The translations under genes were made by a program, and so were the position numbers. A DNA stretch of 25,933 nt from an uncultured bacterium. GTDB lineage: Bacteria > CSSED10-310 > CAZUFC01. The stretch spans positions 1-25,933 of the forward strand of contig CAZUFC010000111.1 of NCBI GenBank assembly GCA_964619725.1. The letters are read 5' to 3'. Below the pieces are notes generated by a model. That model worked only from the letters and a program-made list of their open reading frames with translations. It made no database searches and had not been told where the DNA came from. Below, in pieces: positions 1,810 through 23,900 of the stretch (within the stretch, counting starts at the first letter, position 1; every line of letters starts with the position of its first letter).

Positions 1810-3660
1810 ATGCAAACCGGTATAATGAGAAAGGGACAAACAAGGAATCAAAACTTAAGATCAGGAGTTTTTTCCCCTCGATACAGGGCTTTTCCGAGAT
1901 TAAGCCATAAGGCGGCCTTGGCGGCTCTGGCGATAATTTTATGCCTGTTGGAAGCGCTGGCTTACATTTACAGGTACGAACCGAAATCGCCGTGGTATTC
2001 TCATCCGTCGGGGTGGGGCGCACGCGTATGGCTGATCATGGGTATAGCCCATTATCTTGCGGGGGCATATTTTATTTTCAAAGCCCTGTTTGACGACTTC
2101 AAACGCATGCGCATCATCAGCCTGGCGGCGCTCGGACTTGCAGCATTCATCACGCTCTATGGTGCAGGCGATTCTTCCCTGGCTCGCATCAACTCTGAAG
2201 CTACTCAACAGCTCGCCGGGGGCATGCATGGATGGACAATGCCCGATTTCGGATACAGCGGCGCCTGTCATATCTTTCTGGGCTATCCCATGCGTCAGTA
2301 TTTAGTCGCCTCTCTCCCTTCGATAATCATAGGACCCGGCGCCCTGGCGCTCCATCTGGGCTGGGCGCTTCCTTTCCTTTTCGGATGCTTACTGCTCTAT
2401 GCGGGAATGAGGAAATTCTTCCAGCGCAGAGGAGTAGTTCCCGAAATTTCCGCTTGCCTGGTTCTGGCCATTTTCACATTTCCCTACATGATAAAATTTT
2501 TAAGACGGTTTGAGCAGGGCAGCATACCTTCAGCATTTGTCGCGGCAGCATTAGGCTGGGTTCTGCTTTTTTTATTGCGGCCTAATTTCATCCGGCTCAC
2601 AGGAGTAATCTGGAGCGGCGCCATGCTGGGCGCCAGTTACACCCCTTCGCTCAGCGCCTGGTCTTTATTGCTTGCCTTCGCAACCTTGATGGCCATACAC
2701 AATATCCGCAGTTCCGACTGGGGGCGCGTCTGGGGATGGTGCGCCGTATTCTTTCCCATCCTGTTCACGGGGGCATTCATTTTTTTACTTAGAAACGACG
2801 CTAATCTTCTGGGTTACAGCGGATATGTCAAAAAAGTATCCGTTTGGCCGTCTCTGGTGCAAGCGGCTGCGACCTACTTCCGTTTCGATTTTCCAGCAAG
2901 CGGAGAACCTGAATACAGTTACTTTTTCATCGCGCCCGTGCTTCTCCTGTTTATCGGTTACCTTTTTCTGGGACTTATGGGCCGCCTGGGTATAATTTCC
3001 GCCATGATATCTCTGTGGACGATAGCCGTATTCATGGCTTCAACCCTTATGGCGGGCACATCTTCGGCGCCGGCCCATATTCAGTTGCATCGGACGTTGC
3101 CGGCGGTTCCCATATTACTTTTCGACATAACGAGAAATATTGCTGATTTTTTGTATAACCGCAGGAAGACCGGCAAACGACGCGCACAGGTCTCGCTTTC
3201 ATTTCTCCTGCTGGCGATCTTCGGTTACAGTTCCATCCAATTATTTTTAAACGATCAGTCGCTTTTTTTGAGAACCTTGCCGCCCGTATTAAAAGCCTTT
3301 CAACCTGAACTCGAACGCCCCCCAAGCCCGTTATGCAGCAATTTACCGACGACCTGCCCTGTTCTCGTACTGAGCGAAGCTTATATGCTTAAAAATTTAA
3401 AGGATCGCTCCAAGTATTTTATTCCCGGAACGCCATTGTATGTATTCAGGGTTAACATACCTTCTGAATTGGACCTCAGCCGGGGACTGCGGCTGTATGT
3501 CGATTCCCGCATCGATGTTCCGGAAGAATATCGTCCGGTCATCGCCAAAGCCATTCCTGTCAAGACTATGGAATTCCGGTGTGAGAACAACAAGCAGTAT
3601 TTAATGCGTTTCGATTTGCCTGCCGGGATTTACTCGCACCTTTTATTGTCCGAAAGATAA
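1810..3660 (+). CDS. Polytopic membrane protein, probable GT-C fold (ArnT/PMT-like) glycosyltransferase; start uncertain
   Basis: Many hydrophobic segments plus a soluble C-terminal domain. The segment INSEATQQ...LGYPMRQYLVASLPSIIIGPGALALHLGWALPFLFGCLLLYAGMRKFF resembles the first external loop and following helices of ArnT-like enzymes. No clear RBS at 1810. Confidence 0.55.
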   Translation: MQTGIMRKGQTRNQNLRSGVFSPRYRAFPRLSHKAALAALAIILCLLEALAYIYRYEPKSPWYSHPSGWGARVWLIMGIAHYLAGAYFIFKALFDDFKRMRIISLAALGLAAFITLYGAGDSSLARINSEATQQLAGGMHGWTMPDFGYSGACHIFLGYPMRQYLVASLPSIIIGPGALALHLGWALPFLFGCLLLYAGMRKFFQRRGVVPEISACLVLAIFTFPYMIKFLRRFEQGSIPSAFVAAALGWVLLFLLRPNFIRLTGVIWSGAMLGASYTPSLSAWSLLLAFATLMAIHNIRSSDWGRVWGWCAVFFPILFTGAFIFLLRNDANLLGYSGYVKKVSVWPSLVQAAATYFRFDFPASGEPEYSYFFIAPVLLLFIGYLFLGLMGRLGIISAMISLWTIAVFMASTLMAGTSSAPAHIQLHRTLPAVPILLFDITRNIADFLYNRRKTGKRRAQVSLSFLLLAIFGYSSIQLFLNDQSLFLRTLPPVLKAFQPELERPPSPLCSNLPTTCPVLVLSEAYMLKNLKDRSKYFIPGTPLYVFRVNIPSELDLSRGLRLYVDSRIDVPEEYRPVIAKAIPVKTMEFRCENNKQYLMRFDLPAGIYSHLLLSER

Positions 3661-3719: not shown

Positions 3720-6700
3720 CTACTTCCTTTCCTTCAACAGTTTTCTATTGCCCAGTATTGCACAGGCAAAGAGAACCAGCAGGGCGAAAATTCCCAATCC
3801 GCTGAAAGCGGGAATGGGTGCGGGAGTTGGTGTTTGAGTAATAGTAGGCGTCCAGGATGAAGTCGGCGAATAACTCGGCGTCGGGGTTTCCGAGGGAGTC
3901 AGCGTGGGAGACTGTGTAGGAGTGCCGGTACGAGTGGCCGTAGCTGTGCGGGTAGGACTTATGGTGGGTGTGTTTGTAATCGTCGGCGTCTGCGTGATTG
4001 TTGGAGTGCTGGTGACGGTCGGGGGTATAGTGATTGTCGGCGTCTGAGTGACGGTTGGAGTGAGAGTAACCGTGGGTGTTTGCGTTACGGTCGGCGTGAG
4101 CGTGAAAGTCGGAGTCATCGTTATGGTTGGCGTAGGAGTTTCGGTCGCTTTAACAAGCTCAAAGTCCTGGTTAACCAGAATGTTCATATCGACTTCCAGC
4201 CCTGAAAGAGTTTGCGGGACATAGCCGTCAGCGCCTGCCGTCACGTTGTATGTGCCGTTCTGCAGCCTGAGTATGTCATAGTATCCTGCGGGGTTGCTGC
4301 CGTCAGCGTCCGATTTTCCTCCTGAAGCCGTAACCGTGGCGCCTTCTATCGGCGACAGAGAACCGTATTCGCGGACGTATCCGGTTATCCCGCCGCCTAC
4401 ATGAAAGCTCCAGTCATATCCGGGACAGTCATAGCAGACTTCGTAATCGTCGGCATCATGCAATTCCAAAGCGACCATTATATCGGCAGATTCGTCGGTC
4501 ACCGGCCAATAGAAAGAATACCATTCATTTTCATTGGGATTCAGACTCATCATTCCGTCTTCATCTTCTTCGTGACTGTCATATTCGGGTTCGCTCAAAT
4601 TGCCGTCCGTATCGACTTTCATCGTGCAAGCCAGATCATAGGCGTTAAAGGGATGAGGATTCTCCGCCCGGACCTGTATTCTCGCCGTTTCACCCGGATA
4701 GAATACATTCATCGTATCACCCTCCGGATTCGTGATTTTCACTTCCAGTATCCGCGGCGGAAGATCGATAGAATATCCTTCGCAGAACTGCGGCAGCTCC
4801 TGAGCGATATCGTCGGCTTCCTGTTGGCTGCCTGCGCAGATATTGACCATTATTGAATCCAGTCTCAAAACGCACATGGAATTGGTCGATACCACGTAAT
4901 GACCTCCGTTGAAATGTTGAGTTCTGATGGAAAAAGTGTTTGACGCGGAACCGTCGGGATTGATGTTGAGGTATCCCGGGTCAAAAGCGAAGCCGTATGT
5001 ACCCCGCGGAATAAGGTCATTTAATTCGCCGATCAAGTGGTTGTTGATGTATAGTTTGATGTAATGTCTCCTTACGTCGGGTCTGGGATTGAACGTAGTG
5101 AACATTGCAGCTCCCACGACAGCTTCAGAACCGAGACTGACGTCGAAATGCATATTGATGTTCGGACGGTTGGTGCAGAACCAGTTAGCCATCGTGTAGC
5201 ATAGCTTGGGCTCTGCAACCACGGCCTCAAAAACCTGGCGAGGAGCTTCGCATTCAAACGTTAACGGCAAGGTTTGTTCGACGCCGCCTGCCTCCGCATG
5301 AAGGTCGCCCTGGATCAAGGTCTCGCCTAACTCGAACAAAGGTTCCACATAAAAGTCCAGGTTCGATCCTGCGCCCATTCGATAATGTTCGATTCGCGGT
5401 ACGAACAACACGTTTCCGATGAGTCCGTTCTGAGCAACGACAGTCATATCTGTGACCGGATCACTCATATTGGCCACCCTGCATTCTTTGATCTCCGAAA
5501 CAGGATCAGAATTTTCTTCAGTGACCAGAAAATAGACGTCAGGCCACTGTACGCAAATATCAGTGGGAGCGCTGTCCGTAATGGGGTCTCCGTCCTCATC
5601 CGCCACCAGCGTTAGCGTCGTTGCGAAACATACCTCCAGAGGCTTATCATTGCCGGCCTGGACATCCTGGGCATGAATGACCAGTTCAATATCCATCACT
5701 TCGCCCGGCAGCAAGGTTACGGTCTCATCCTCGCTTCCCGGTCCGACGAAATTGACGATCAACTCTTCGTGCGGATTATCGATGTGAAGTTCAACCGTAT
5801 GGCTGACCACATCCTGGTTCTCAACACCCACAAAAACATGCTGATCGTAATCCCTTTCCACAGTAAACACGTAATTATCCTCGGTAAAAACCACTCCGTT
5901 TCCGACTTCGAAGGTCCAAATTTCCGAATCAAACTCACCGCAAAGGGAAACACTATGAATAAACCATTCATAAGTCTCATTGCGAGCCAGGCTCTCCACT
6001 TCGAGCTCATGCTGCGTTTCATCCTGCCCCACAGGTACGATCAGCCAGACCGGTTCGCCCACGATCCTGTAATGGAGCCAGGTATTCGCAATATCGGACG
6101 TATGCCAACTGAACGTAACCTCATTGCTGCCGGAAGTTATTCCGTCCTGGGGATAACGCTGCGATATCTCGACATTCCCGCCGACGTCCAGGACGGCTTC
6201 ACATGAATAATCCTCGCCCAATACGGATGAAGCGGCGGTCACTTCAAACGGGTAGGTATCGACCGACGAACATGAATCTGGAATCTCGACAGTCAAAACG
6301 GCGACGCCCGATTCACCGGCGTTCAAAGTCAACTGTGCCGGTTCAAGGGTATGCCACGAAGCCGGCAAATCTCCTGATACGGCGAGATCGAATATATCAA
6401 TGCCCATATTCGAATTATCCACCGTTACGGTGAATTCAGCAACTCCTCCGACCGTCGCCGTATCTTCTTCCGGATCAATACCCACGGCAACGCCGCCGAT
6501 GCAGTATTGGATGGGATCGCCTTTTTCCGCTTCATTGTTGTTCTCATTCAATTCATCTATTTCTTCCAAAACATCAACTTCCACGATTATCCGAACGTCG
6601 CATGCTGCAGTCCAGAATTCCGCTGCAGTCGCTGTATCGTTTACCTCAAGTCCCCACATGAGCTGATCGCTCCCGATTTGAACAGGTCCTGTGCCGTCAT

Positions 6701-9700
6701 CCTCATAAAACCTCACAGTGAAAGGATCGCACGGTAAATTCCCGATGTTGTGCACTTCAACCGTGATGATGGTGAGTTCTCCTTCCAAAGGTGCAACAGG
6801 ATCAAAACTGATGCTCTGACTGGTAATCTCCAGGTCCGCGGCCGGGGTCGGCGTATCGGTGGGTAAAGGCGTAGGCGTGAAAGTCGGCATGGGAGTCGGA
6901 GAAAAAGTATCAGTGGGTAATGGCGAAGGCGTCCGGGTCGGCGAATTGGTCGGCGTTGAGGTTATCGTGGGAGTTTGCGTGATAGTCGGCGTTTCCGTTG
7001 CAGTCGCTGTCGGCGATTCGGTCGGCGTCTCCGACGGCGTTTCGCTCGGAGTTTCCGTCGGAGTGTCGGTAGGCGTATCTGTGGGAGTTTCTGTCGGAGT
7101 GTCGGTCGGAGTATCTGTAGGGACATCTGTCGGAGTATCGGTCGGTACCGGCGTCTCCGTCGGCTCAGGAGTGTCGCTCGGTACCGGCGTCTCTGTGGGC
7201 TCAGGAGTGTCACTCGGTACCGGCGTCTCCGTCGGCACAGGCGTTTCGGTCGGCACAGGCGTTTCAGACGGCGCAACTGTCGGCGTGTAATACACTACTC
7301 CCTCATCATCATGGAAACCCATATCCACAGTCCCCAGATCAGCAACCGCATCGGTCCTCGTCGTCAGCTCAGACAGGCATATCGAACCTGCCTCATTCGT
7401 ATAACAGATATTTGCAGACAGGTCGCTGCCGGCATCGACGCAGGGACTCGTCGTCATTTGTCCCGCAGCTATGTGACTTAAATCATAGTAACTGCCCGCG
7501 AATTCAGGATCGGCTTCGATATTCCCGGCGCCCCAGGTCAAAACGGACGTGCCGTCTACATAAACGCCGGCCTGCCCGCCCGCAACGTCGCAATGCGAAA
7601 CTGTAAAAGAGCTGCTTTCCTCAAGAGCCATCTCATCGTAATAACCGTAAACGGAAGTGTTCCCCCAGATAATATTGTTCGTAAACGCGCCTTCCGCCGA
7701 ATCGTAACCGTATACGGCCCCGACGTAATCGCTGCTGTTGTTCGTCATAGTGTTGTTCGTCACTGTCGGTGAAGCTGAACTCCTGATGTCCAGTACGCCG
7801 CCTCCCGTCGAAGTGCAGTAGTTATCAATGAACAAATTGTTCACGATTTCGGGATTGCAGAGACTCTCCATGTATACGGCTCCGCCCTGATCCCCCGTAT
7901 TCTTGGCAATAAAATTGTTGGTGATCGTCGGGGATGATTCGCTCGTACAGTAAATCCCGCCGCCCGACAATCCTTCGTTCTCCGAGATGTTGTTGTCTGT
8001 TATCAGGGGATTCGACGCCGTAAGATACACGGCGCCTCCATGACCGACTATATTGGTCGTGTTGTCCGTCATTAAATTATCGTAAACAGTCGGACTTGAC
8101 TGATCGCAATATAATGCACCGCCGCCTATGCTCCAGGTCCCGTTCCACCGGAATTCGTTTCCGTTTATTTCGCAATCGGAAGCCATTTCGCAATATATCC
8201 CGGCCCCCGCATCTCCTTCATTCGAATGAATCGTATTGCCGGTAATGTGCGGAATTGATACGTTCGTGCAAAATATGCCGCCGCCGCTATAAGCTGTATT
8301 AGCCTGAATCGTATTCCCGGAAATCAACGGTTCAGCAGAATTGTCGCAGAATATGCCGCCGCCCGACATCACCATCATCATCATACCGTTGTTGGAAATC
8401 GTGTTGTTCGTTACCGTAGGCGAAGCGCCGTCGCATGAAATTCCGCCGCCCGTACTGTCCGCTTCGTTCGAATCAATCGTGTTGCCGTGAATCTGAGGTT
8501 GACTCTCCGAACAGTAAATGCCGCCTCCTTCCGAGCCTGAATTCATCGATATCGTATTGTTCATGATAGCAGCGTTCGAGTCCGTTTCACAATTGATGCC
8601 GCCGCCCTGCATCGACATGTTTTCATTAATCGTATTCGGCGTCATTGCACCGATTTGAGGTGATGAATATTCAAGATAAATTCCGCCCCCGCCCGACATG
8701 GCCTCATTGCCGTTGATCTGATTGTCGTCGATCGGAGGATCAGAACTTGTGCAGGCTATTCCGCCGCCGTAATCGGAATAATTGTATTCTATCGTGTTCC
8801 CCTGTATCACGGGAACGGCTCCATTGGCGCAATATATACCGCCGCCGTACATTCCCATCATCATCATGAGATTGTTCATGGATATCTCATTGTTGGTTAT
8901 CGTCGGCGATGATCCGTCACAGTATATGCCGCCGCCGGATTCCGCCTGGTTATCTTCAATCGTATTCCCCTGAATCGTTGAATTCACTGAACCTGCACAG
9001 GCAATACCGCCGCCGTACATCCCCATCATCATCATGGCATTATTCTGCCATATATGATTATCGACGATATCCGGAGAACAATCCTCCAAATAAATGCCGC
9101 CGCCCATCGACGTCCCGTCATTATTCATGATCTCATTGTTGGTGATGGCGGGTTCGGAATTCCGGCATGCAATGCCGCCGCCCGCATCTGAATAATTTCC
9201 GTCCACATTATTGTTCGTTATCATCGCATTGGACGAATCCTCCAAGGCTATGCCGCCGCCGAACATACCCATCATCATCATTTGATTATTCATCGTAATA
9301 GTGTTCGTATCGATCAGGGGCGAGGAGCCGCTGCAGTATATGCCGCCGCCAGTGTCTCCGTTATTGTCCGATATCGTATTTCCCTGAATGGTCGGTTCAG
9401 CTCCTGACAGACAGGCGATACCGCCGCCGTACATCCCGTTCATCATGCCGTTGTTATAATCAATATTGTTGTCGATAATGTTCGGATTGCAGGATTCGAC
9501 GTAAATGCCGCCGCCGTAACTCTGTCCGTCGTTTGTCGTAATAGTGTTGCCCTCTATCTGAACGTCGGAACTCGAACAATAAATGCCGCCGCCGCTGTCG
9601 GAATAGTTCCCGTCGACGGTGTTATTCGTTATCGTAGCATTGGACATTGATTCGCAGGCTATTCCGCCGCCGTACATGCCCATCATGGCCATCTGGTTGT

Positions 9701-11483
9701 TGTAATTGATCTGATTCTGGTCGATCACAGGCATTGAACTGTTGCCGCAGTAAATCCCGCCGCCGGTATCCCCAACATTATTTTCAATAGTATTCATTTG
9801 AATAAGAGGACTGGAGCTTTTGTCGCAGGCTATGCCGCCGCCGTACATTCCCATCATCGACATCGAGTTGTTTTCGGAAATGGTATTGCCCGTTATCTGA
9901 GGCGATGAACCGTCCAGGCAGATTCCGCCGCCGGACGTCATGCCTTCGTTATACTGAATATCATTGTCGGTTATAGGCGGATCAGAAGACAGAAGGTATA
10001 TGCCGCCTCCCGAATCGCTGTAGTTCTCATAGATCGTATTGCCGGAAATGTTGAAACCGGTCGCATTTTCGCATGCTATGCCCCCTCCGTACATTCCCGT
10101 CATCATCGACTGATTATTCCGGGTGATCTGATTGTTCGTGATCCCCGGCGCAGCAGAATTGCAATAGATGCCGCCGCCCGTATCGCCGTAATTGTCCTCT
10201 ATGTTGTTATTGTCGATCACTGGAGCCGAACCGTTCTCACAGGAAATGCCGCCTCCGTACATGCACATCATACCCATGGTGTTGTTCCAGGAGATCGTAT
10301 TGTCGGAAATTTGAGGACTTGAACCGTCCAGGTAAATCCCCCCGCCGGACGTCATGGCGTCATTGTAATCGATATTGTTATACTGGATCGTCGCATCGGA
10401 GGAGTTGCAATAGATGCCGCCGCCCATATCGCTGGAATTATTGCTTATCATGCAGTAAGTGATCGTGGGCATTGACCCGTTCTCGCACGCTATGCCTCCA
10501 CCGTACATTCCCATCATGTATTCATTGTTTCTGTTGATCTGGTTGTTGTAAACCGTCGGGGATGAACTGTCGCAATAAATCCCGCCGCCCGTCTCGGCAA
10601 TGTTCTCCTCTATGGTGTTCCCCTCAATATTGGGACTCGAACCGTTCTCGCAATATATCCCTCCTCCGTAATTCCCCCAAAGGGCCGTCTGATTGTTGCG
10701 TACTATCTGATTGTTGCTGATTTCAGGCGAAGAAGCGTCCAGATAGATGCCGGCCCCACTCATTCCGTCGTTCTGATCAATCTCGTTGCCTGTTATCGTC
10801 GGCGTTGATGATGAACAGAGTATCCCGCCGCCGTATTCCGAATAACTGTCGCTGATAGTGTTGTCGCTTATTTGCGGGCCCGAATCGCTTTCACAACCTA
10901 TCCCGCCGCCTGCATATGCCTCATTATAATCAAAATCATTGTTCTGGATGTTCGGGGATGAACCAGAACAATATATGCCGCCGCCCAGATTGTCCGCCGT
11001 GTTGCTCTCCAGGTAATTCTCCCGGATGTCCGCATCGGCCCCGTTCATGCAACCTATTCCCCCGCCGTTCATCGCTGAATTATTGACGATATAATTATTC
11101 GTTATCGTCGGGGACGATCCGTCGCATAATATCCCGCCGCCTTCACTCATCGCCGCGCCGCTCGTTATTGTGAAACCGTTGATCACCGCAGCGGATGTCT
11201 CTCCGCTGCTGAAAACCACTGCACTGTCCGTCATGTCACCCTCTATTGTGCAGGAAGAGTACCCGTTCTCGCTCGTCAGGACGACATTCTTACCGTTGAA
11301 ATTAATGTTTTCGTTATACGTCCCGTCCTCAACGTATATCGTGTCCCCGTCCATGACCGACGGATCATCCAGCGCCTCCTGAATCGTTGAAAAATCCGTC
11401 ATTACATACCAGTCTGCGCCCTGCGCTGGCCAGACCAGCAGACTGGTGAGGATCAGCCCCAAAATACAATAGCGACCAGTCAT
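3720..11483 (-). CDS. Giant secreted/cell-surface protein: signal peptide, right-handed parallel beta-helix repeats, Pro/Thr stalk, CARDB, Ig/FN3-like, carboxypeptidase-regulatory-like domain, second Pro/Thr stalk, IPTL-CTERM-like sorting tail
   Basis: Signal peptide ending PAQG-A; dozens of GGGIxC..SSPxIxxNxIxxN coils; ADLEIT...DELNENNNEA (CARDB); ITGYVR...PIEGATVTA...GYY...GTYNVTAGADGY; C-terminal IPAFSGLGIFALLVLFACAIL plus RKLLKERK. AAGGAGG RBS upstream. Confidence 0.9.
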   Translation of the reverse strand: MTGRYCILGLILTSLLVWPAQGADWYVMTDFSTIQEALDDPSVMDGDTIYVEDGTYNENINFNGKNVVLTSENGYSSCTIEGDMTDSAVVFSSGETSAAVINGFTITSGAAMSEGGGILCDGSSPTITNNYIVNNSAMNGGGIGCMNGADADIRENYLESNTADNLGGGIYCSGSSPNIQNNDFDYNEAYAGGGIGCESDSGPQISDNTISDSYSEYGGGILCSSSTPTITGNEIDQNDGMSGAGIYLDASSPEISNNQIVRNNQTALWGNYGGGIYCENGSSPNIEGNTIEENIAETGGGIYCDSSSPTVYNNQINRNNEYMMGMYGGGIACENGSMPTITYCMISNNSSDMGGGIYCNSSDATIQYNNIDYNDAMTSGGGIYLDGSSPQISDNTISWNNTMGMMCMYGGGISCENGSAPVIDNNNIEDNYGDTGGGIYCNSAAPGITNNQITRNNQSMMTGMYGGGIACENATGFNISGNTIYENYSDSGGGIYLLSSDPPITDNDIQYNEGMTSGGGICLDGSSPQITGNTISENNSMSMMGMYGGGIACDKSSSPLIQMNTIENNVGDTGGGIYCGNSSMPVIDQNQINYNNQMAMMGMYGGGIACESMSNATITNNTVDGNYSDSGGGIYCSSSDVQIEGNTITTNDGQSYGGGIYVESCNPNIIDNNIDYNNGMMNGMYGGGIACLSGAEPTIQGNTISDNNGDTGGGIYCSGSSPLIDTNTITMNNQMMMMGMFGGGIALEDSSNAMITNNNVDGNYSDAGGGIACRNSEPAITNNEIMNNDGTSMGGGIYLEDCSPDIVDNHIWQNNAMMMMGMYGGGIACAGSVNSTIQGNTIEDNQAESGGGIYCDGSSPTITNNEISMNNLMMMMGMYGGGIYCANGAVPVIQGNTIEYNYSDYGGGIACTSSDPPIDDNQINGNEAMSGGGGIYLEYSSPQIGAMTPNTINENMSMQGGGINCETDSNAAIMNNTISMNSGSEGGGIYCSESQPQIHGNTIDSNEADSTGGGISCDGASPTVTNNTISNNGMMMMVMSGGGIFCDNSAEPLISGNTIQANTAYSGGGIFCTNVSIPHITGNTIHSNEGDAGAGIYCEMASDCEINGNEFRWNGTWSIGGGALYCDQSSPTVYDNLMTDNTTNIVGHGGAVYLTASNPLITDNNISENEGLSGGGIYCTSESSPTITNNFIAKNTGDQGGAVYMESLCNPEIVNNLFIDNYCTSTGGGVLDIRSSASPTVTNNTMTNNSSDYVGAVYGYDSAEGAFTNNIIWGNTSVYGYYDEMALEESSSFTVSHCDVAGGQAGVYVDGTSVLTWGAGNIEADPEFAGSYYDLSHIAAGQMTTSPCVDAGSDLSANICYTNEAGSICLSELTTRTDAVADLGTVDMGFHDDEGVVYYTPTVAPSETPVPTETPVPTETPVPSDTPEPTETPVPSDTPEPTETPVPTDTPTDVPTDTPTDTPTETPTDTPTDTPTETPSETPSETPTESPTATATETPTITQTPTITSTPTNSPTRTPSPLPTDTFSPTPMPTFTPTPLPTDTPTPAADLEITSQSISFDPVAPLEGELTIITVEVHNIGNLPCDPFTVRFYEDDGTGPVQIGSDQLMWGLEVNDTATAAEFWTAACDVRIIVEVDVLEEIDELNENNNEAEKGDPIQYCIGGVAVGIDPEEDTATVGGVAEFTVTVDNSNMGIDIFDLAVSGDLPASWHTLEPAQLTLNAGESGVAVLTVEIPDSCSSVDTYPFEVTAASSVLGEDYSCEAVLDVGGNVEISQRYPQDGITSGSNEVTFSWHTSDIANTWLHYRIVGEPVWLIVPVGQDETQHELEVESLARNETYEWFIHSVSLCGEFDSEIWTFEVGNGVVFTEDNYVFTVERDYDQHVFVGVENQDVVSHTVELHIDNPHEELIVNFVGPGSEDETVTLLPGEVMDIELVIHAQDVQAGNDKPLEVCFATTLTLVADEDGDPITDSAPTDICVQWPDVYFLVTEENSDPVSEIKECRVANMSDPVTDMTVVAQNGLIGNVLFVPRIEHYRMGAGSNLDFYVEPLFELGETLIQGDLHAEAGGVEQTLPLTFECEAPRQVFEAVVAEPKLCYTMANWFCTNRPNINMHFDVSLGSEAVVGAAMFTTFNPRPDVRRHYIKLYINNHLIGELNDLIPRGTYGFAFDPGYLNINPDGSASNTFSIRTQHFNGGHYVVSTNSMCVLRLDSIMVNICAGSQQEADDIAQELPQFCEGYSIDLPPRILEVKITNPEGDTMNVFYPGETARIQVRAENPHPFNAYDLACTMKVDTDGNLSEPEYDSHEEDEDGMMSLNPNENEWYSFYWPVTDESADIMVALELHDADDYEVCYDCPGYDWSFHVGGGITGYVREYGSLSPIEGATVTASGGKSDADGSNPAGYYDILRLQNGTYNVTAGADGYVPQTLSGLEVDMNILVNQDFELVKATETPTPTITMTPTFTLTPTVTQTPTVTLTPTVTQTPTITIPPTVTSTPTITQTPTITNTPTISPTRTATATRTGTPTQSPTLTPSETPTPSYSPTSSWTPTITQTPTPAPIPAFSGLGIFALLVLFACAILGNRKLLKERK
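3822..4150 (-). repeat. Thr/Pro-rich hexapeptide repeats (TPTxTx), C-terminal stalk
   Basis: TPTITMTPTFTLTPTVTQTPTVTL... in the translation. Confidence 0.9.
6845..7290 (-). repeat. Pro/Thr-rich stalk (TPVPTE, PTDT, TPTIT) with a near-perfect 36-nt tandem repeat at 7144-7236
   Basis: ggtaccggcgtctc(c/t)gt(c/g)ggctcaggagtgtc(g/a)ctc starts at 7144 and 7180, with a partial third copy at 7216. Confidence 0.9.
7660..11145 (-). repeat. Beta-helix coil array with a 414-nt (138-aa, 5-coil) super-repeat
   Basis: Equivalent Met codons of MYGGG lie at 10260, 9846, 9432 and 9018, each 414 nt apart. Confidence 0.85.
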
Positions 11484-11683
11484 TGAGTCCTCCTTCTGAA
11501 AATTGTCAATGTTCTTGAAAAAAATACATCAAAATCAAATACATCCCTACGCCAAACTCGAATCTCTGAAACTCTTCACCCTGCGATTGTTGCCCTTGAT
11601 TAACCCCGCAATTGGACCTTCATCATTTATTAAAGCAAAAAATTATTAAAAGCAAATTCTTCGCAACTTATTTTTTAATTTAA

Positions 11684-11730
11684 GCCTGTCCGGAAACTCT
11701 CCTTAACTCCGCATGCCCAAACAGACAGGC
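11684..11730. repeat. Intergenic palindromic element, copy 2 (GCCTGTC-N33-GACAGGC)
   Basis: 7-bp perfect arms at 11684-11690 and 11724-11730, about 20 bp after the stop of the ATP-grasp paralog. Confidence 0.7.
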
Positions 11731-11749
11731 GCCGATCCCCAAAAAAAGA

Positions 11750-12781
11750 TCAGCCGGATATATCTTTGAAATTTTTATGGTCCAAAAGATCGTCAACGGC
11801 ATAATGCGAAAAAACGATTCCTAAAGGATAATCCCCCCGTGATTCGTGATTCGCACTTTTACCTTGTACTGCTGACAGTATCCACTCAGCCGCCGGATTA
11901 TACCCCATTTGCGACCATATTCCGCTCCAGCTCGGAAAACCGGGCTCGATATTTTTCAGAAGATATCCATCACTCTGGGTCGAAAAAAAATTCACTGTAA
12001 AAGGCGCCGGGCAGCTCAACGCCTCACACAATTTCTGCAATATCGCCTCCAGCGAAGGATCGCGGAACGTTATCCCCATCCAGGGTATTCCGTAATCATT
12101 CTCAATTATGTGCCTGACCGAAAATGACTTAAGAAATGCGCCCTTCTCATCAGGCAGAATCAGAGCAGAACCTTTAAATCCTTCCGGTTCCTGGTAAAAA
12201 AACAGAAAATCTTGAGAGGCGAATTTTGCTCTTAAAGCTTCGACGTCCTGCCGCATAGATACTTTGTATCTTCGTCCTTCCGCGGTCTCGAGATAAATCG
12301 CTTTTGCAGAAGAAAAAATCTTCAGGTCTAAAGTATCCAGGGGTTTGAGCAATTGCCCGGGCACAAGAGGCAATCTTTCTTCCATCGCCAGGTTCCGGAA
12401 AAATTCCTGGAAAAATAAAGGAAGCTGATCCTTTGAGGGCAAGCGAACCCTCAAACCTCTTGAACGGAAATCGGCCTTTGCTGAAACGGCGGCGGTAATT
12501 TCATTTTTCCTTCCCGGAAGAAAAAGTTGAAAACGATCTTTCTCATGAGCTTGCAAAATAGCTTCTGCCCAACTGCCGGCATCATCATCAGGGTTCGGCG
12601 CATTTATCAAAGCATCCCATAATCCGGGATAAAATGCGCCGGATTCCTTATGATCTTCGACCACGCCCGTCAGTCTTACGGTAAATCGACTATTGCTTTT
12701 AAGGCTTAAAGCGAGTCCGACTGCTGCAGAAGGCGTATCGGAATTCATCAAACCTGAAAGAGCGATATGAAATTTTTTCAT
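11750..12781 (-). CDS. Degenerate ATP-grasp-like paralog (probable pseudo-enzyme)
   Basis: Aligns by eye end to end with 12778..13830 (FHIALSGLMNSDTPSAAVGLALSLK vs ITVGITGMDSLENPYPGLAVASCLK; FPSW vs FPAW; YPLGIVF vs YRPGALF). ATG at 12781 overlaps the upstream stop (ATGA). The ExNxR motif is replaced by NIEPG. Confidence 0.75.
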   Translation of the reverse strand: MKKFHIALSGLMNSDTPSAAVGLALSLKSNSRFTVRLTGVVEDHKESGAFYPGLWDALINAPNPDDDAGSWAEAILQAHEKDRFQLFLPGRKNEITAAVSAKADFRSRGLRVRLPSKDQLPLFFQEFFRNLAMEERLPLVPGQLLKPLDTLDLKIFSSAKAIYLETAEGRRYKVSMRQDVEALRAKFASQDFLFFYQEPEGFKGSALILPDEKGAFLKSFSVRHIIENDYGIPWMGITFRDPSLEAILQKLCEALSCPAPFTVNFFSTQSDGYLLKNIEPGFPSWSGIWSQMGYNPAAEWILSAVQGKSANHESRGDYPLGIVFSHYAVDDLLDHKNFKDISG

Positions 12782-13830
12782 TTTTTCCACGATATTGTCC
12801 CGCTGGAAGCAAGTCCGGCGAATTCTGAAAATTCAGCGGCGGCGATATTGATGTTTCTGAAGAACAGGGCTCCAGGGCGATACTCACTTTCCGGCAAATC
12901 CATCCCCAGAGCGCGACAAACGGTCATATAGGGGAAATTAATTCCTGCTTTCACACATAGGGCGACCCAGGCCGGAAATCTTGCGTTCATCTCCAGCAGG
13001 TAATAAGTTCCCGTTGAGGCTTCACGCATTAACTCAAGTTCACATGGTCCCACCCATTGCAGTTTTCTCAATGTTCGTTCGGCATATTCCCTTAGTTCTC
13101 CGGAATCAAGCGCTAACCCTGAAAAAGCTTTTCCCCGTCCGGTTATGCCGAATTTCCTCATGGGTAAAACAGCAAGCGGTTTATGATCCCTGTCCGCTAT
13201 CGCCATTATGTCATATTCGTCTCCGACGATGCGCCGCTGAACTATTACGGGATAACCCCAGTCATTCAATATACGCCGGTAAAAATATTTTGCTTCAGCA
13301 AGATTTTCAGCCTTTTCCGCATCAATTATCGAACCTTTTATATACAAAGGAAAACTGAATCTCTGTTCAATGCTGTCCAGTTGTTCCTCGTAATTTAATA
13401 TCTCCGTCAACGGCGTCGGGATGTTTTCTCTCCTGCAAGTGTGAAGCAGACTCGTCTTAGCCCTGCTTTTCACTGCACGCTCCGAAGGAATTAAAGTACG
13501 TATGCCCAACTCATCCAATTCGTTCCGGATTCTCGCGTAAAGCGCTATCTCTGAATCCAGCGCCGGAATAAGAACGTCAATAGGATTCTCCTTCTGCAAC
13601 TTCATATAACCGCTAAGCATGACTGTCTCCGAATCGCTAGGATAGGGAATCAGAACGACGGAATCAATCGCTTCCCGGCAGTATATGCCGGTCGTCGTAG
13701 GTTCATACGTCAACGCTCTTACATGGATATCCGCCCCCTTTACCGCCTTTAAACAGGAGGCTACCGCCAGACCGGGATAAGGATTCTCCAGAGAATCCAT
13801 TCCTGTTATTCCTACAGTTATCCTTCTCAT
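12778..13830 (-). CDS. ATP-grasp domain carboxylate-amine ligase
   Basis: IDVLIPALDSE; FPLYIKG (ATP-binding Lys); YPVIVQRRIVGDEY; GPCELE; YYLLEMNARFPAW (ExNxR). Start overlaps the PqqD-like stop (ATGA at 13827-13830). Confidence 0.9.
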   Translation of the reverse strand: MRRITVGITGMDSLENPYPGLAVASCLKAVKGADIHVRALTYEPTTTGIYCREAIDSVVLIPYPSDSETVMLSGYMKLQKENPIDVLIPALDSEIALYARIRNELDELGIRTLIPSERAVKSRAKTSLLHTCRRENIPTPLTEILNYEEQLDSIEQRFSFPLYIKGSIIDAEKAENLAEAKYFYRRILNDWGYPVIVQRRIVGDEYDIMAIADRDHKPLAVLPMRKFGITGRGKAFSGLALDSGELREYAERTLRKLQWVGPCELELMREASTGTYYLLEMNARFPAWVALCVKAGINFPYMTVCRALGMDLPESEYRPGALFFRNINIAAAEFSEFAGLASSGTISWKK

Positions 13831-14090
13831 TCCGTCTCAACCAGTCCCTTTCTTTCAAGCTCCAGAAAAAAATTTTTGACTTCTTCACGAACGTCGCACC
13901 CTTCAGTTTCGTACGTTTCATGAAGTTTTAAAACCGCTGCGTTCATTGCCGGATTCCGCTCAATCGCCTTCAGTAAAAAAACGCCTACTTCGTTGATCCG
14001 GTAGGCCCTCCCTCTCCTTCCGTCAAAAAGTACCCCCACATTTTGATCTAAACTGCAACGAACATCCGGCGACAACCTGATTTTTTCCAT
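13827..14090 (-). CDS. Stand-alone PqqD-family / RiPP recognition element (RRE) protein, 87 aa
   Basis: GVLFDGRRGRAYRINEVGVFLLKAI...LHETYE...VREEVKNFFLELERKGLVE matches the PqqD pattern of three strands then three helices. AGAGG RBS 7 nt before the ATG at 14090. The longer ORF start overlaps the TPR gene. Confidence 0.88.
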   Translation of the reverse strand: MEKIRLSPDVRCSLDQNVGVLFDGRRGRAYRINEVGVFLLKAIERNPAMNAAVLKLHETYETEGCDVREEVKNFFLELERKGLVETE

Positions 14091-14151
14091 GCGGCAACCT
14101 CTTTTTGATCTTATATGTTGAGCAGAAGTTTTTCCTCTTTTCTGAAAACAG

Positions 14152-16158
14152 TCACTGACTTTTCGAATTTTTATCCCGGGAGAGTTTCTTATCAAGTTCG
14201 CCAAGCCCCTCCTTCGCCTCCTGATATTCGGGCGCCAGACTTAGCGCCTGTTCGAAGGCCCTTCTCGCCTGTTCGAGATATGAAAGCTTTAAAGCGGCCC
14301 AGCCCAGTCCGTTCCACGCCTCGTAAAGGTCGGCCTTCGCCTGAGTAATTTCTTCAAATATTTTATGAGCTTCCAGATAATTACCCTGTTCGTAGAGAAT
14401 ATCCGCATATTGGATGCGATAATCAGGTTCATCGGGAAAATCTTTCATGAGGGACTGGTAAAGCTTGGCCGCCTGACTGTATTTATTCCGTTTCAATATT
14501 GTCTGTGCCAACCCGTCGCGGGCAAACGGATTCTCCGGGGATAACTCAATAACCTTTTTAAAAGCTTCTTCCGCTCGATCAAGTTCCTTGACCCTCAAAT
14601 AAGACCACCCCAGGCCGCTGTAGACCTTCCACTGTTCTTCTTCGTCCAGATGTTTCCAGTCATTTTCTATGCTCTTTTTAAACTGACCGATCGCTTCCTC
14701 GTAACGTTCTTCGTAAAAACTGCTCCACCCGCTGCTGTAATTCTGCTTGTAATGCTGCAATACCGCATTCTTCCCATTAATTGCGTCCTGATAATTAGGA
14801 TTTATGCTTAACGCTTTCGTAAAGCTCTCCAAAGAGGCTTCATACTCCTCTTTTTTCAGTTTGCACCATCCCAGTCCCGAAAGCAGGTCTATCCATTTCG
14901 GATGCGCTTCAAGACCTTTCTCGAACTGCTCCTCGGCTTCCTCATATTTTTCCTGGTAGTAGTAAGACCAGGCCAGGGTTGAACGGGCATTCGTTTTTAT
15001 GGTGAATGAACTTACCGATCCGGATAGCGTTACGTTCTGCTCGACTTCTATCGGATCGGAAATGACCGATAAATAATATTTCAGAGTATCGATCGCTTTG
15101 TCGTACTGTTCGAGCTGGAAATATGCATATCCCAGTCCTAGAAATAATCCTGAATCTTCCGGCATCTTCTGCAGACCATACATGAAAGTGTCCAATGCGG
15201 ACTTGTAATTTTCATACCGGTAATAACTCCAGGCAAAATCGCTGTACAAATCCCACCAATCCTCACGTCCGTTTATAACCTGAAATAAGAAAGAAACTGA
15301 CTGATGCTGAGGATTCAGTTCAATGGCTTTCCTGAATTCCTTTTTCGCTTCCGTAAATTCCGACTGCCGGTAACTGCTCCAACCGATGCCGTAATGAGCG
15401 TCCGCCAGGTAGGGATTCAATTCTGCTGCTTTCATAAATTCTTTTTCAGCCTGTTCATATTCATTTTTATAATAATAATTCCATCCGATAAAAGATCGTA
15501 CATCCGCCCATTCGGGTTCCTTTTCAGCCGTTCTGTTCAATATTTTCAGAGACTCATCATATTTTTGATGAAAAAACAAAGACAAGCCCTTGCCTTTCAA
15601 AGCATATGCGTTGTTCGGCGAAACAGCCAGAATCTTCTCAAATGATTCGATGGCTTTCTGATAATTCTGCAGATAATAATAAGACCAACCCAATCCGCTG
15701 TGTACCTGCCATGAATCGTCAGGAGGCAATCGGCCCGAATCGTCCTCCAATATCTCCTTAAACGCCTTGTACGCCTTATGATATTCTCCGTTGTAAAAAT
15801 GATTCCAGGCTGAGTTAAAGGGAAGGTATCTCCATTTTTTCACAGCGGTTATCCCCTCCATGGCGCTTTGATCCTGCGGATTCAATTTAAGCGCCTTTTC
15901 AAAAGCATGCTGTGCATCGATGTATTCCCCAAGCCAGTAGTAACTCCAACCCAATCCAGTGAGAGGTTCCGCTATGAAAGGATTCTTCTGTGCAGCCTTC
16001 TTGAATTCGACTACGGCTTTGGAATATTCTCTCTGCTGGAAAAACTTCCACCCCTCTTCCAACTCCGCAGCAGTTATTCTTAAAGCGGGTATGGCCGATA
16101 ATCCCAGCACGACGGCTTTAAAAAGCGACCTTTTTAATTGCTTCAATCTCTTTTTCAT
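14152..16158 (-). CDS. Tetratricopeptide-repeat protein with probable signal peptide; aromatic GLGWSYY-type repeats
   Basis: Basic then hydrophobic N-terminus; repeated GLGWSYY...Y..A...F.KA..LNP units; GAGGG RBS. Confidence 0.9.
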   Translation of the reverse strand: MKKRLKQLKRSLFKAVVLGLSAIPALRITAAELEEGWKFFQQREYSKAVVEFKKAAQKNPFIAEPLTGLGWSYYWLGEYIDAQHAFEKALKLNPQDQSAMEGITAVKKWRYLPFNSAWNHFYNGEYHKAYKAFKEILEDDSGRLPPDDSWQVHSGLGWSYYYLQNYQKAIESFEKILAVSPNNAYALKGKGLSLFFHQKYDESLKILNRTAEKEPEWADVRSFIGWNYYYKNEYEQAEKEFMKAAELNPYLADAHYGIGWSSYRQSEFTEAKKEFRKAIELNPQHQSVSFLFQVINGREDWWDLYSDFAWSYYRYENYKSALDTFMYGLQKMPEDSGLFLGLGYAYFQLEQYDKAIDTLKYYLSVISDPIEVEQNVTLSGSVSSFTIKTNARSTLAWSYYYQEKYEEAEEQFEKGLEAHPKWIDLLSGLGWCKLKKEEYEASLESFTKALSINPNYQDAINGKNAVLQHYKQNYSSGWSSFYEERYEEAIGQFKKSIENDWKHLDEEEQWKVYSGLGWSYLRVKELDRAEEAFKKVIELSPENPFARDGLAQTILKRNKYSQAAKLYQSLMKDFPDEPDYRIQYADILYEQGNYLEAHKIFEEITQAKADLYEAWNGLGWAALKLSYLEQARRAFEQALSLAPEYQEAKEGLGELDKKLSRDKNSKSQ

Positions 16159-20955: not shown

Positions 20956-23900
20956 TTATCCCTCAGGGACATACTTGATTATTTTGCCTTCAAAACTCAG
21001 GAAGAACACTTGTCCTGATGCATCGATCTCCAGGTCGCGCCCCAGCGGAAGGTCGGGCGGTTCGAACAATCCCTTGCGGTCAGTTTTTCCTTTTTCCAGC
21101 AGAAGCTTGTTATCCAGCGAGAAAGTCCTTATCCAATGCGTTCTGAGGGCGCTGAAGTACAAACGTCCCTGCTTGTCGATACGCAACATGGGATTATCTT
21201 CCCGTTCAATATTTTCCATGCCGCCGACAACATTACCGTTCATGTCGAATATATGTATTCTTTCCCAGGACCCGTCATGAAAATAAACCCTGTTTCGAGC
21301 CGGATCAACAGCCATAGCCATCGGGTCCATCCCTTTCATCTTTTCATGAACATTAGGAAACAGCGGCCTGAATCCCTCGTCGGTCCATTTAAACGGAGCG
21401 TAACTTAATAACGCGTAAAGTTCACCCTCGAAAGTCGAATAAAAATAATGCAGATGGCCGGGAAGCTGCCTTACCGTCTTTTTTAGTTTTCCCGACTCAT
21501 CGTATATCCTCAAAACCTGTTCATGCGCCGGCACGGTAAAAACCTCTCCCTGCCTCGTCACTTTGAACAAAAACGGATAGTTACGCTCCCACGTTATCGG
21601 CTGTGGCGTCGTCCAGGAACCAATTTCCGGTTTTAACGGATGCCAGGCTCTCTCGAATTTAAAATCAGCGTCGTATTTCGCGATTGTAACTCGTTCGCTG
21701 TCGGAAACATAAATCGAACCGTCCGGACCGATCTCCAGAAATGTCGGCTTTATCGGCTCGTCAGTAAACGGCGACGGCAATTCAGGCGTCTCCTCCAGTC
21801 GAAAAGACAGGTCCGTCAATTCAATGGGTACGGCTTTAAATGGGTCGTCTCTCGGAGCAAAAGGAGTGAAAAACACGGCAGGCATTTTCATCCTGACGCC
21901 TACGAAAGGGAATTCAATTTGTAACGTATTGCAATTCTTTATTACTTCTGCACGAACCTGAATCGAATGGAATCCTTTCATCAAAAACCTCGCACGGCTC
22001 TCCTGCATCCGGGGATCGGACTTATTCAAAATCTCATTATCGTCAATATATAAAGCGCACGGGGTATCTCCTTTTGTCGTAAACCGGTATACGTTCGATT
22101 CGGGAGCAAACCAACTGCCTGTCCATAACACAGTGTAAGGTTTGGTCAACTGTATTTCGGACCATTGAGCCGTCGGCTTGATCCGCTTGGATTCCAATAG
22201 CGGCCGATTAAACGCAGGTTCTCCCCTGAATATCGTTTCCTTCAAACCCTGGGCAGCTTCTATGTCGTCATGGGGAATAAAAACCGTATAAAACATAGGC
22301 TGATCTTCCTTATTATAATGGGTAATCAAACGGCTTGAAGGATGATACTCGGAAAAAAGCGGTAGATATCGTTCAAATTCAGGTTTCTCTCTTATGGAAT
22401 ATAAAACGTTCTTTTCCGTTTCATAATGAATGGGAATGTTGTCCTGAGGATTGATCGTCTGGAGTTTGTATTGATTGTCGTCGATTTTATTGGAGTGCTT
22501 ATAGTAGTAGAGCAATTCCTGGTATTCTCCCAGATGCGTCATAAAAACCGTGAAATAACGACCGTTGGCCCTCACGAATTCTTGCCTCTGGTATTCCGGG
22601 CAGTCAGGATGTTCGAAAACGTTGTAGGTGCGAGTAAAAAACCTGTGAATGCCGAATCCGGATACGGTTAAAAGCGCAATAGTTACGAACAGCGCTTGCA
22701 TCGCTTTTCCGGTTTTGACGGGACGGTAAAAAATCATAGTCGCCAAACTCATCAGCGCGTTGCCGGCGAAAATGTAGAGCAACGGTTGAGTGACTCCCAG
22801 GCGCCTTGGAACCGGGTCCGATATAATGACCGGCAGAAACGATATGAGGAACCACAAGAGCAGGAACAGGTGCACTTTTTTTCTTTTTGAGAAAAAGGAA
22901 TTGAAGATGCTCATGCCGAGTCCGAACAGATATAGAACAGCCGTGAAAGGCAGCAACAGCGGCCCGTCGTCCCAGTAAGCCATATCGCCCCTGAATCGAT
23001 AATTGAAAAAACCCACTAGTTGACTTAAATACTCGCCCAGATCGCTCTTGTGACGATACATCTTGAAACTGTGTTCCTGGGCCGACACGAAATGATAAAT
23101 AAAAGCATTGATGTCCCACATCAGAGGAGTCATAACCACGATTGTGAATACGATCCAGTAAAGGATCATCTTATACCAGTTGAAACGCAGGAATTTTTTC
23201 TGACCGACGCTCCATAGGAACATCCCGCCTAACATAATGACGGGAACAACCCTGTAAGACGGAAAAGTATACATGCCCAGACCGCCGAAAAAACCCGCCA
23301 GTATCCAGCTTCCCGCCGTCTCCTTCTGAACGGCCCGAACGAACAGCCAGACTGCCAGAACCGTAAAAAGCGGCACGAAATTGAATCGCTCCGATATCCT
23401 GTTCATGGCCAGCAGCCACGGACTTATTCCAAACAGAAACATCCCCGCCAGCGCCTTTCGTGAATTGAACAATCTCTGCATCAGAAAAAACAGGAAAAAA
23501 ATCGCTAGTATCCCGCTCATTATGGATACGAACTTCAACGCCATCGGATTCTGGCCGAACAGCAGAATGGTCAAAACTTCACAATATATATACAGGGTTT
23601 CTCGCTCGCCCCAGTGACGGATAAAAGGCTTGTAAGGCGTTATACCGGTCAGAAAATCCATCGCCCATTGACCCTTGAATGCCTCATCAATCGTGCTGTC
23701 ACGACTGAAACAATACCGTTGCTCGAAATCGTCGATCCGATAAAACCGAAGTAGGGACGTCAATACGCTTATCAGTATGAATAATGTAAATACTTTCTTC
23801 TTATCCAAAAGTGAAACCCGTCTGCGCACAGGCGTATCATCTTTGGGACGAACCAGGATTAAATAGAGCGCCGGACCGCCGAGCAACAACGCTAAACCAG

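Follow-up and report, generated by a model that had tools for sequence, protein, structure and literature searches.

A conserved stripe of methionine-rich loops on a predicted surface beta-helix protein of an uncultured bacterium

The analysed window, a stretch of 25,933 nucleotides, is contig C111 (CAZUFC010000111.1) of the G000 genome (GCA_964619725.1) of an uncultured bacterium of the GTDB lineage CSSED10-310. It contains an open reading frame (ORF) of 2587 amino acids (aa) on the reverse strand (3720-11483), the product of which appears to be a secreted, C-terminally anchored beta-helix protein. This protein holds all ten of the methionine (Met)-rich loops that an earlier note, made from the sequence alone, had listed, each directly preceding a GGGI motif (GGGI at aa 328, 410, 466, 548, 605, 686, 742, 824, 880, and 1041). 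By class the protein is a right-handed beta-helix, and its new part is a conserved stripe of Met loops. We tentatively interpret the loops as a multivalent adhesion strip for a soft apolar surface, the target being putative.

Methionine loops and the five-coil period

From the N-terminus onwards, with all coordinates on the reverse strand, the loops are EYMMGMY (10503-10526), TMGMMCMY (10257-10280), QSMMTGMY (10089-10112), SMSMMGMY (9843-9866), QMAMMGMY (9672-9695), GMMNGMY (9429-9452), QMMMMGMF (9261-9284), AMMMMGMY (9015-9038), LMMMMGMY (8847-8870), and GMMMMVMS (8364-8387); the sixth to the ninth are also covered by the more confident of the two structure models described below. A Met-free long loop of the same shape, QTALWGNY (aa 265-272, 10668-10691), stands ahead of them, and the number of Met per loop climbs along the array, from none in the most N-terminal long loop to five in the last four. 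Met accounts for 41 of the 80 residues of the ten loops; the loops were chosen as Met-rich, and the weight of this figure rests on the control sets described below. Every loop contains three to five Met and an MxxM spacing, eight of the ten also contain MxM, and the longest run of Met is four.

The coil register divides most of the array into five units of five coils each: aa 273-409 (137 aa, 10257-10667), aa 410-547 (138 aa, 9843-10256), aa 548-685 (138 aa, 9429-9842), aa 686-823 (138 aa, 9015-9428), and aa 824-959 (136 aa, 8607-9014), the last lacking its second Met loop. Coil lengths within a unit follow the order 26/30/26/26/30. In aa 250-1050 the lag of 138 gives the top amino-acid autocorrelation (0.34), and over the 25 coils of aa 273-959 the identity at this lag (0.397) was reached in 0 of 500 shuffles of coil order (maximum 0.341). 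The alternation of long and short coils is perfect at lag 5 (permutation p 3e-5), with a 28-aa Met-poor coil at aa 932 counted as long. The earlier note had described an exact 138-aa super-repeat; the period is indeed significant, but it is exact in only three of the five units. Likewise, the recurrence every 414 nt was confirmed as to its steps, while the positions given were 4 nt too high, the GGGI motifs starting at 10256, 9842, 9428, and 9014; nine of the named loops fall within the five-coil period and the tenth (aa 1041) lies outside it. The units are 53-65% identical to each other, and their four-fold degenerate sites are 28-59% identical, with 30% expected at random; the duplications are therefore old.

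Orthologues, paralogues, and rarity of the loops

A profile of the ten loops retrieved two further Met-loop proteins, P0121 (1312 aa, partial) and P0122 (1283 aa, with an anchor tail of the same type). Since they are 47% and 45% identical, respectively, to aa 1-1390 of the window protein and give the best matches to both caps, they are its orthologues from another assembly; the two accession numbers begin with the same prefix, and the proteins are therefore probably paralogues within a single assembly. The consensus of their loops is NN-x(2-4)-(M/W)-G-M-(Y/A). The identity of the single five-coil units to these two proteins is 47-56%, but their loops are irregularly spaced and form no long periodic array, so the long regular array with its 138-aa period appears to be a local amplification. 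The conservation of Met in homologues, on which the interpretation in the earlier note hinged, was borne out, whereas the exact super-repeat was not supported as its essential feature. As Met has been kept despite the low identity of four-fold sites between units and across orthologues of 45-47% identity, the Met stripe appears to have been selected.

Among 64 paralogues encoded in the same genome, none of 823 coils has at least three Met in the eight residues before GGG. Many of them, however, hold long insertions at the same turn, often Tyr-rich or polar, and for this reason the turn before GGG appears to be the variable display site of the family. In several giant paralogues with coils of 35-42 aa (C19:56323-65004, C42:120-10661, C71:2-15295, C203:1-9156, and C216:3949-9570 of G000) the insertions at this turn are long, Tyr-rich, alternating, and graded in length, and probably form stacked beta-hairpins.

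In 326 public proteins, 9 of 5593 coils have at least three Met before GGG, and all nine belong to P0121 and P0122; no such loop occurs in the 324 other public relatives. Such loops were also absent from 13 other genomes of the phylum (60-96% complete) by the pattern MGM[YF]GGGI and by the loop profile: over all 14 phylum genomes the pattern matches only G000, and the best non-self match of the profile reaches 29.5 bits against 59-79 for the window gene. A profile search of 1.84 billion representatives placed P0122 first, with no further Met-loop protein among the best 150 of 1144 matches. A full-length homologue search gave 2816 relatives at E<=0.001 among 7999 scored; 0 of 3445 coils in its best 120 matches have at least three Met. 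The candidates of this search were limited to proteins of 1422-4528 aa, for which reason it missed both orthologues. At the DNA level, a scan of metagenome_contigs for GMYGGGI.C returned 29 single-match loci, and the 28 viewed included two generic beta-helices and none with a Met loop. The pattern MMGM[YF]GGG gave 105 single-match loci in genome_contigs, all in Gly/Met-rich segments and none a beta-helix by inspection; one of them has three GGGI-like words but is Gly-rich. Among these loci (L007-L111) the motif recurs at an equivalent place in dozens of Planctomycetota proteins of about 950 aa, after a stretch containing P[FY]P and before PKGD. The blanks of the DNA scans are weak, since these scans missed P0121 and P0122, and with the best 120-150 matches of the protein searches listed, the family may have more members.

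Composition of the loops

In the 31 long loops of the three proteins, the proportions are Met 37.3%, Phe/Trp/Tyr 17.5%, Leu/Ile/Val 3.7%, Asp/Glu 0.5%, Lys/Arg 0, and His 0.5%, compared with Met 0.7%, Phe/Trp/Tyr 9.9%, Leu/Ile/Val 9.3%, Asp/Glu 8.9%, Lys/Arg 3.7%, and His 1.7% for the other public relatives (602 long loops). Two places before GGG, Met is conserved in 24 of 28 loops, while at position -4 Met (10 loops) and Trp (9 loops) alternate; several loops of the orthologues hold just one or two Met. There is one His in 214 loop residues and none in the ten loops of the window protein. Met is also enriched over the whole helix, making up 5.3-6.3% in the three proteins; for the 271 public relatives that have at least eight coils, the median is 0.75% and the highest value 2.7%. 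Lys/Arg make up 0.6-0.8% of these three helices. The rod of the window protein (aa 273-1060) has 60 Met in 788 residues, and 79 Asp+Glu, 4 Lys+Arg, and 2 His. It thus appears that Met in particular has been selected, with aromatic partners and without charge.

This composition bears on one alternative explanation of the array, a neutral low-complexity drift in which ATG slippage in a tolerant loop was spread by tandem duplication and Met has no function. Runs of up to four ATG codons, the rise of Met per loop from 0 to 5 along the array, and the frequency of Gly/Met-rich segments in unrelated proteins are all consistent with it. However, loop length is constant at 7-8 residues, residues with codons one base away from ATG (Ile, Leu, Val, Lys, Arg) seldom occur in the loops, and Met persists while four-fold sites approach saturation and across the diverged orthologues; moreover, the 823 coils of the paralogues never show a build-up of Met at the same turn. 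The Met-specific, uncharged composition argues against ATG slippage and against plain hydrophobicity alike, and we consider neutral drift very unlikely.

Structure models

A single-sequence model of aa 273-1040 (768 aa) is a continuous beta-helix with a predicted local distance difference test (pLDDT) score of 71.3, in which all ten Met loops are among 14 segments below pLDDT 50. The model of aa 662-959 made with a six-row alignment has pLDDT 92.2 and a predicted template modelling score (pTM) of 0.92. In this model all four Met loops of the segment connect the third strand of a coil with the GGG that begins the following coil. They are non-regular and predicted with less confidence (77-84 in blocks of ten residues), and the Tyr or Phe preceding GGG forms a bridge. 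The beta-helix fold and the shared coil position proposed from the sequence were thus supported, all modelled loops lying in the same turn. Because of this common turn the loops would share one edge of the rod. The standard rise of a beta-helix is 4.8 A per coil, on which basis neighbouring loops would stand 10 or 14 A apart in a strip of 10-12 nm on a rod of about 21 nm.

The three-stranded coils superpose on those of solved beta-helices. The nearest solved fold is the A-module of AlgE4 (2pyg; Z 27.4, root-mean-square deviation (rmsd) 2.0, 252 aligned residues), followed by AlgG (Z 26.8) and Vag8 (26.4); NosD and a phage tail protein both score 25.9, and dozens of other structures exceed Z 21. 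At the sequence level the Pfam Beta_helix family (PF13229) matches nine stretches of the protein with 355.2 bits (cut-off 25.9), and a PDB sequence search returned only a match to a Thr/Pro linker. Judging from the models, the helix is a generic pectin-lyase-like one, and its fold gives no hint of function.

Foldseek, run with the single-sequence model of 768 aa, returned nothing at E<=0.001, its weak list being headed by antigen 43 (E 0.013). Self-associating beta-helix adhesins such as antigen 43 are known, and uncharged Met-Trp/Tyr-Gly loops on a regular rod could similarly act as stickers that zip together rods from one cell or from adjacent cells, giving bundles or a matrix. Copies of so acidic a rod would, however, repel each other unless bridged by cations, which makes self-association very unlikely in our estimate. 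A homodimer prediction for aa 662-959 (two copies, six-row alignment) scored 0.25 against a mark of 0.42; its controls were unfolded, and it was used neither way.

Functional interpretation of the loops

In the tentatively preferred adhesion reading, the helix would be a scaffold and the variable turn before GGG its display site. In every second or third coil this turn contains about four additional residues, uncharged and with a high share of Met, Gly, and Tyr/Trp. Flexible Met together with Trp/Tyr would form an uncharged line, both mouldable and polarisable, along a rod that is acidic and would otherwise repel. The strip could grip a repetitive soft apolar target through many weak contacts (thioether, sulfur-aromatic, and hydrophobic), candidates for the target being particles of metal sulfide or sulfur, apolar organic surfaces, and surface proteins of a partner. 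Tandem duplication of the five-coil unit would have lengthened the strip and raised its avidity, the 138-aa period being a trace of duplication rather than a ruler, and an exosortase-like enzyme would process and anchor the rod. The surface-adhesin architecture of the protein supports this reading. In addition, the exchange of Met for Trp and the orthologue loops with one or two Met are easier to reconcile with an apolar strip than with discrete metal sites of three Met each. The ten neighbouring ORFs scanned include neither copper nor Msr genes, no sulfur gene is linked either, and no linked gene points to adhesion, metal binding, or antioxidant shielding.

Several points weigh against adhesion to an apolar surface. 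Leu/Ile/Val are depleted in the loops (3.7% vs 9.3%), so generic hydrophobicity does not account for the preference for Met; what counts seems to be the thioether as such, and this would also suit metal binding and oxidant quenching. Stacking of the loops would follow from their common turn, and the feature is known from only two genomes. With regard to sulfur particles as the target, neither dsrA, NrfD/PsrC, nor full-length asrC was found in the genome, which is 90.9% complete. Since no heme-copper oxidase was found either, the host may be an anaerobe without these sulfur respirations, subject to incompleteness of the genome.

The most serious alternative, which we nevertheless regard as somewhat unlikely, is the capture or buffering of Cu(I)/Ag(I), with single loops or pairs of neighbouring loops forming Met-only sites that collect soft metal ions outside the cell, for protection or for the supply of exported copper enzymes. 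It agrees with the three to five Met and MxxM spacing of every loop, with MxM in eight of them, and with the conserved Met two places before GGG, for which Leu/Ile/Val are no substitute. Met-only motifs are selective for Cu(I)/Ag(I) (PMC9117721), the Met-rich domain of CueO serves in transient recruitment of copper (PMC11494321), and NosD is a beta-helix that receives Cu(I) (PMC13685413). NosD ranks fourth among the fold matches (Z 25.9, rmsd 2.4, 255 aligned), but it is tied with or below the alginate epimerases and Vag8, and the window protein scores 103 for the NosD family, below the cut-off of 300. Encoded in the genome are three adjacent Cu-oxidase_3 matches with signal-like N-termini and two heavy-metal P1B ATPases over the cut-off, yet all its copper genes are on other contigs; the former three are exported-looking ORFs followed by a small exported protein (C130:6925-11385). 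Further against copper capture are the scarcity of His (one in 214 loop residues), the many orthologue loops with one or two Met and Trp in place of Met, and the lack of any recognisable site for an acceptor or for catalysis in the protein. The demand for copper looks low as well, as no heme-copper oxidase was found in the genome (the control matched in 9/14). Finally, the occurrence of MMGM[YF]GGG in 105 Gly/Met-rich loci that are not beta-helices indicates that the motif is not a copper signature. Binding of Cu(I) in vitro would be expected of any three-Met cluster.

Exposed Met could also act as a sacrificial sink, quenching hypochlorite, peroxide, or other oxidants that reach an anaerobe in a mat where oxygen swings daily, and being recycled by exported MsrA and MsrB. 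Met is raised over the whole helix and Lys/Arg are low, the MsrA and MsrB of the genome have hydrophobic, signal-like stretches at their N-termini, a heme-copper oxidase was not found, and the locus occurs in microbial-mat metagenomes of one study. A precedent exists in MrpX with YedY1 (PMC4436054). On the other hand, MsrA and MsrB are general in the phylum, being present in 13 of its 14 genomes; a hydrophobic N-terminus is found in 11 of the 12 other genomes with Msr, and none of the 13 other genomes has Met loops. The genes are unlinked, with msrA on C52, msrB on C90, and the Met-loop gene on C111. The loops are uncharged, while MrpX is 44% charged, 20% Met, small, and encoded beside its reductase. 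A rod with 60 Met in 788 residues would be a costly sink, and a periplasmic Msr may miss a rod outside the cell. Taken together, we consider an oxidant sink distinctly unlikely.

Thousands of giant GGGI-type beta-helix proteins of uncultured bacteria are annotated without a known ligand, and the Met-loop subfamily is an unusually clear case of one turn of the helix serving as a chemical display site. The choice of residue (Met over Leu/Ile/Val, and no charge) points to a short list of ligands. A bolder proposal, to which we give rather low credence, is that the proteins form an undescribed small family in which a line of nanometre-spaced Met thioethers binds metal-sulfide or sulfur particles, or collects soft metals from them, in anoxic mats. 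In such a mineral-binding role the array would be genetically encoded and tunable in length, a soft-ligand counterpart to the Thr arrays on ice-binding solenoids. If binding of metal sulfide, sulfur, or Cu/Ag via the array were true, it would represent a new mode of microbe-mineral attachment or metal capture and offer a scaffold of spaced thioethers; should the array be no more than a sticky strip of an adhesin, it would be a minor curiosity known from two genomes.

Gene, protein architecture, and genomic setting

The gene (3720-11483; Pfam Beta_helix 355 bits, CARDB, CarboxypepD_reg) is preceded by a Shine-Dalgarno-like AAGGAGG five nt before the ATG (11489-11495, read from the sequence); a promoter and terminator scan of 11400-11900 found nothing. 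The order of domains from the N- to the C-terminus is signal peptide, beta-helix, cap, Thr/Pro linker, an 895-aa module, a second Thr/Pro stretch, and an IPAF tail, all on the reverse strand. The Sec signal peptide-like N-terminus (aa 1-23, 11415-11483) was recognised by eye and by alignment with the orthologues, the predicted mature start DWYV being common to the window protein, P0121, and P0122. The right-handed parallel beta-helix (aa 115 to about 1285, 7629-11141), delimited by repeat count, models, and fold matches, comprises 43 uninterrupted coils of 25-31 aa with the motif GG[GA]I. It is closed by a C-terminal cap (7314-7628), 50-52% identical in both orthologues, and followed by the Thr/Pro-rich linker (6849-7286; 32% Thr and 25% Pro in aa 1390-1560). 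In all, this single long helix takes up the N-terminal 1,400 residues.

The 895-aa stalk module (aa 1546-2440, 4164-6848), defined by Pfam and genome comparison, is generic: it is common to 15 other giant ORFs of the genome at 50-60% identity. It contains CARDB (aa 1549-1653) and CarboxypepD_reg (aa 2366-2443) domains with about 700 aa between them that match no Pfam family, and is a candidate undescribed surface module. Its only look-alike in the Atlas, at 0.77, is an unnamed archaeal cluster. The C-terminus carries IPAF, a hydrophobic helix, and a basic tail (RKLLKERK), resembling an exosortase-type IPTL-CTERM anchor signal (3723-3815). Our own pattern for such tails matched 200 ORFs of the genome, and one exosortase match exceeds the cut-off (PF09721, 35.5 bits vs 25.7); TIGR04174 (IPTL-CTERM) matched neither the window protein nor the ORFs of the genome, in a genome search whose controls were silent too.

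The G000 genome has 9.17 Mb and is 90.9% complete and 6.5% contaminated. The locus was found in three microbial-mat metagenome runs of one study (X1, X2, and X3, the last with a small share), and no RNA run is among those listed. A Logan contig of X1 spans 8629-11833 and pieces from X2 span 8472-8831 and 10244-10928, in each case with 0 differences, so the array is not an artefact of assembly; X1 may be the source sample. A second Met-rich frame of the genome, of 301 aa with six Met-rich windows (C68:13543-14445), is by our own count its second most Met-clustered ORF.

The ten neighbouring ORFs scanned encode a thiolase, a membrane protein without a family, two ATP-grasp-like proteins, PqqD, two TPR proteins, trehalose synthase/phosphatase, a PMT-type glycosyltransferase, and an MFS transporter. 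Two of the products are multi-spanning membrane proteins, one without a family (1810-3660, forward strand) and one a PMT_2 glycosyltransferase with a weak PA14 match (20956-24198, reverse strand); one might speculate that they form glycosylation machinery for the Thr/Pro linkers.

Upstream of the Met-loop gene lies a cluster of TPR, PqqD, and two ATP-grasp-like genes (11750-16158, reverse strand). Modification of the loops by its products was considered and rejected, as G001 and G002 carry the cluster without a beta-helix gene or Met loops: there it is followed by genes for a pyridoxal phosphate-dependent decarboxylase, a fusion of urea transporter and Sir2, and a 487-aa protein, with no beta-helix gene in 19 kb. 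Close relatives of these three genes are found together on contig C44 of G000, so that in this genome the cluster is either split or exists in two copies; C7 carries another, distant ATP-grasp match. The urea transporter-Sir2 fusions of G002 (L209:12305-14173) and G000 (C44:26319-28187) are 45% identical.

Comparison with known systems

The literature searched, with most subscription journals and supplements lying outside it, contained no description of a Met-loop array on a beta-helix, in agreement with the earlier note's claim of novelty, although NosD, as a beta-helix receiving Cu(I), qualifies the claim that there is no precedent. NosD (PF05048, TIGR04247; 7o0y) is, like the helix of the window protein, a beta-helix outside the cytoplasmic membrane (255 aligned residues, 20% identity). 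It is reportedly an accessory protein of N2O reductase and is said to have a His/Met copper site on the surface of the helix; we know of no array of Met loops in it. The window protein is six times longer and has ten His-free loops against one site. Identity with NosD was rejected on the TIGR04247 score (103.3 bits vs a cut-off of 300), while the broad Pfam NosD model passes (196.8 vs 23.6), as it does for most generic beta-helix relatives. No nosF, nosY, nosL, or nosZ was found among the ten neighbouring ORFs scanned, and a genome-wide search for NosZ (PF18764) was uninformative, its controls being silent.

The Met-rich insert of CueO and the Mets motifs of Ctr1 are likewise flexible segments outside the cytoplasm with at least three Met in MxM or MxxM spacing (PMC11494321; PMC9117721). 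The window protein differs in having no oxidase or transporter domain, no His in its loops, an exchange of Met for Trp, and a periodic array on a rod; no copper oxidase, transporter, or chaperone domain was found in it or in the scanned neighbours. The likeness to the MrpX/YedY1 system (PMC4436054) consists in an exported protein with many exposed Met, and G000 has exported-looking MsrA and MsrB. MrpX, however, is small, probably unfolded, 20% Met, 44% charged, and encoded beside its reductase; membership in this type of sink was rejected for a folded protein of 2587 aa with loops of 0.5% charged residues and no linked msr gene.

Among proteins with functional Met surfaces, SRP54/Ffh, calmodulin, and Get3 have Met bristles, the flexible unbranched side chains of which provide a mouldable apolar surface. 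In those cytoplasmic helical proteins Met lines a groove, whereas here it would be displayed on exposed loops of an extracellular beta-helix. Polysaccharide lyases and epimerases with a beta-helix (AlgE, AlgG, PL6) have a basic catalytic cleft for an anionic substrate. AlgE and AlgG are the best fold matches of the window protein, yet its aa 273-1060 have only 4 Lys+Arg and 2 His.

Identity with the Pmp autotransporters was rejected, as the window protein has no PF02415 or autotransporter match at E<=0.001 and no recognised barrel. P0121 matches PF02415 weakly (26.3 bits), and Atlas look-alikes are Chlam_PMP-repeat clusters (0.94, low recognition). With the wider class of right-handed beta-helices (PF13229; PF02415 Chlam_PMP-like), including the adhesins PfbA (4mr0) and Vag8 (7akv), the window protein shares the fold (Z 22-27), the GGGI.C...N ladder, a signal peptide, and a surface anchor. 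It differs from this class in the Met-rich uncharged insertions repeated in one turn and in the uninterrupted helix of 43 coils.

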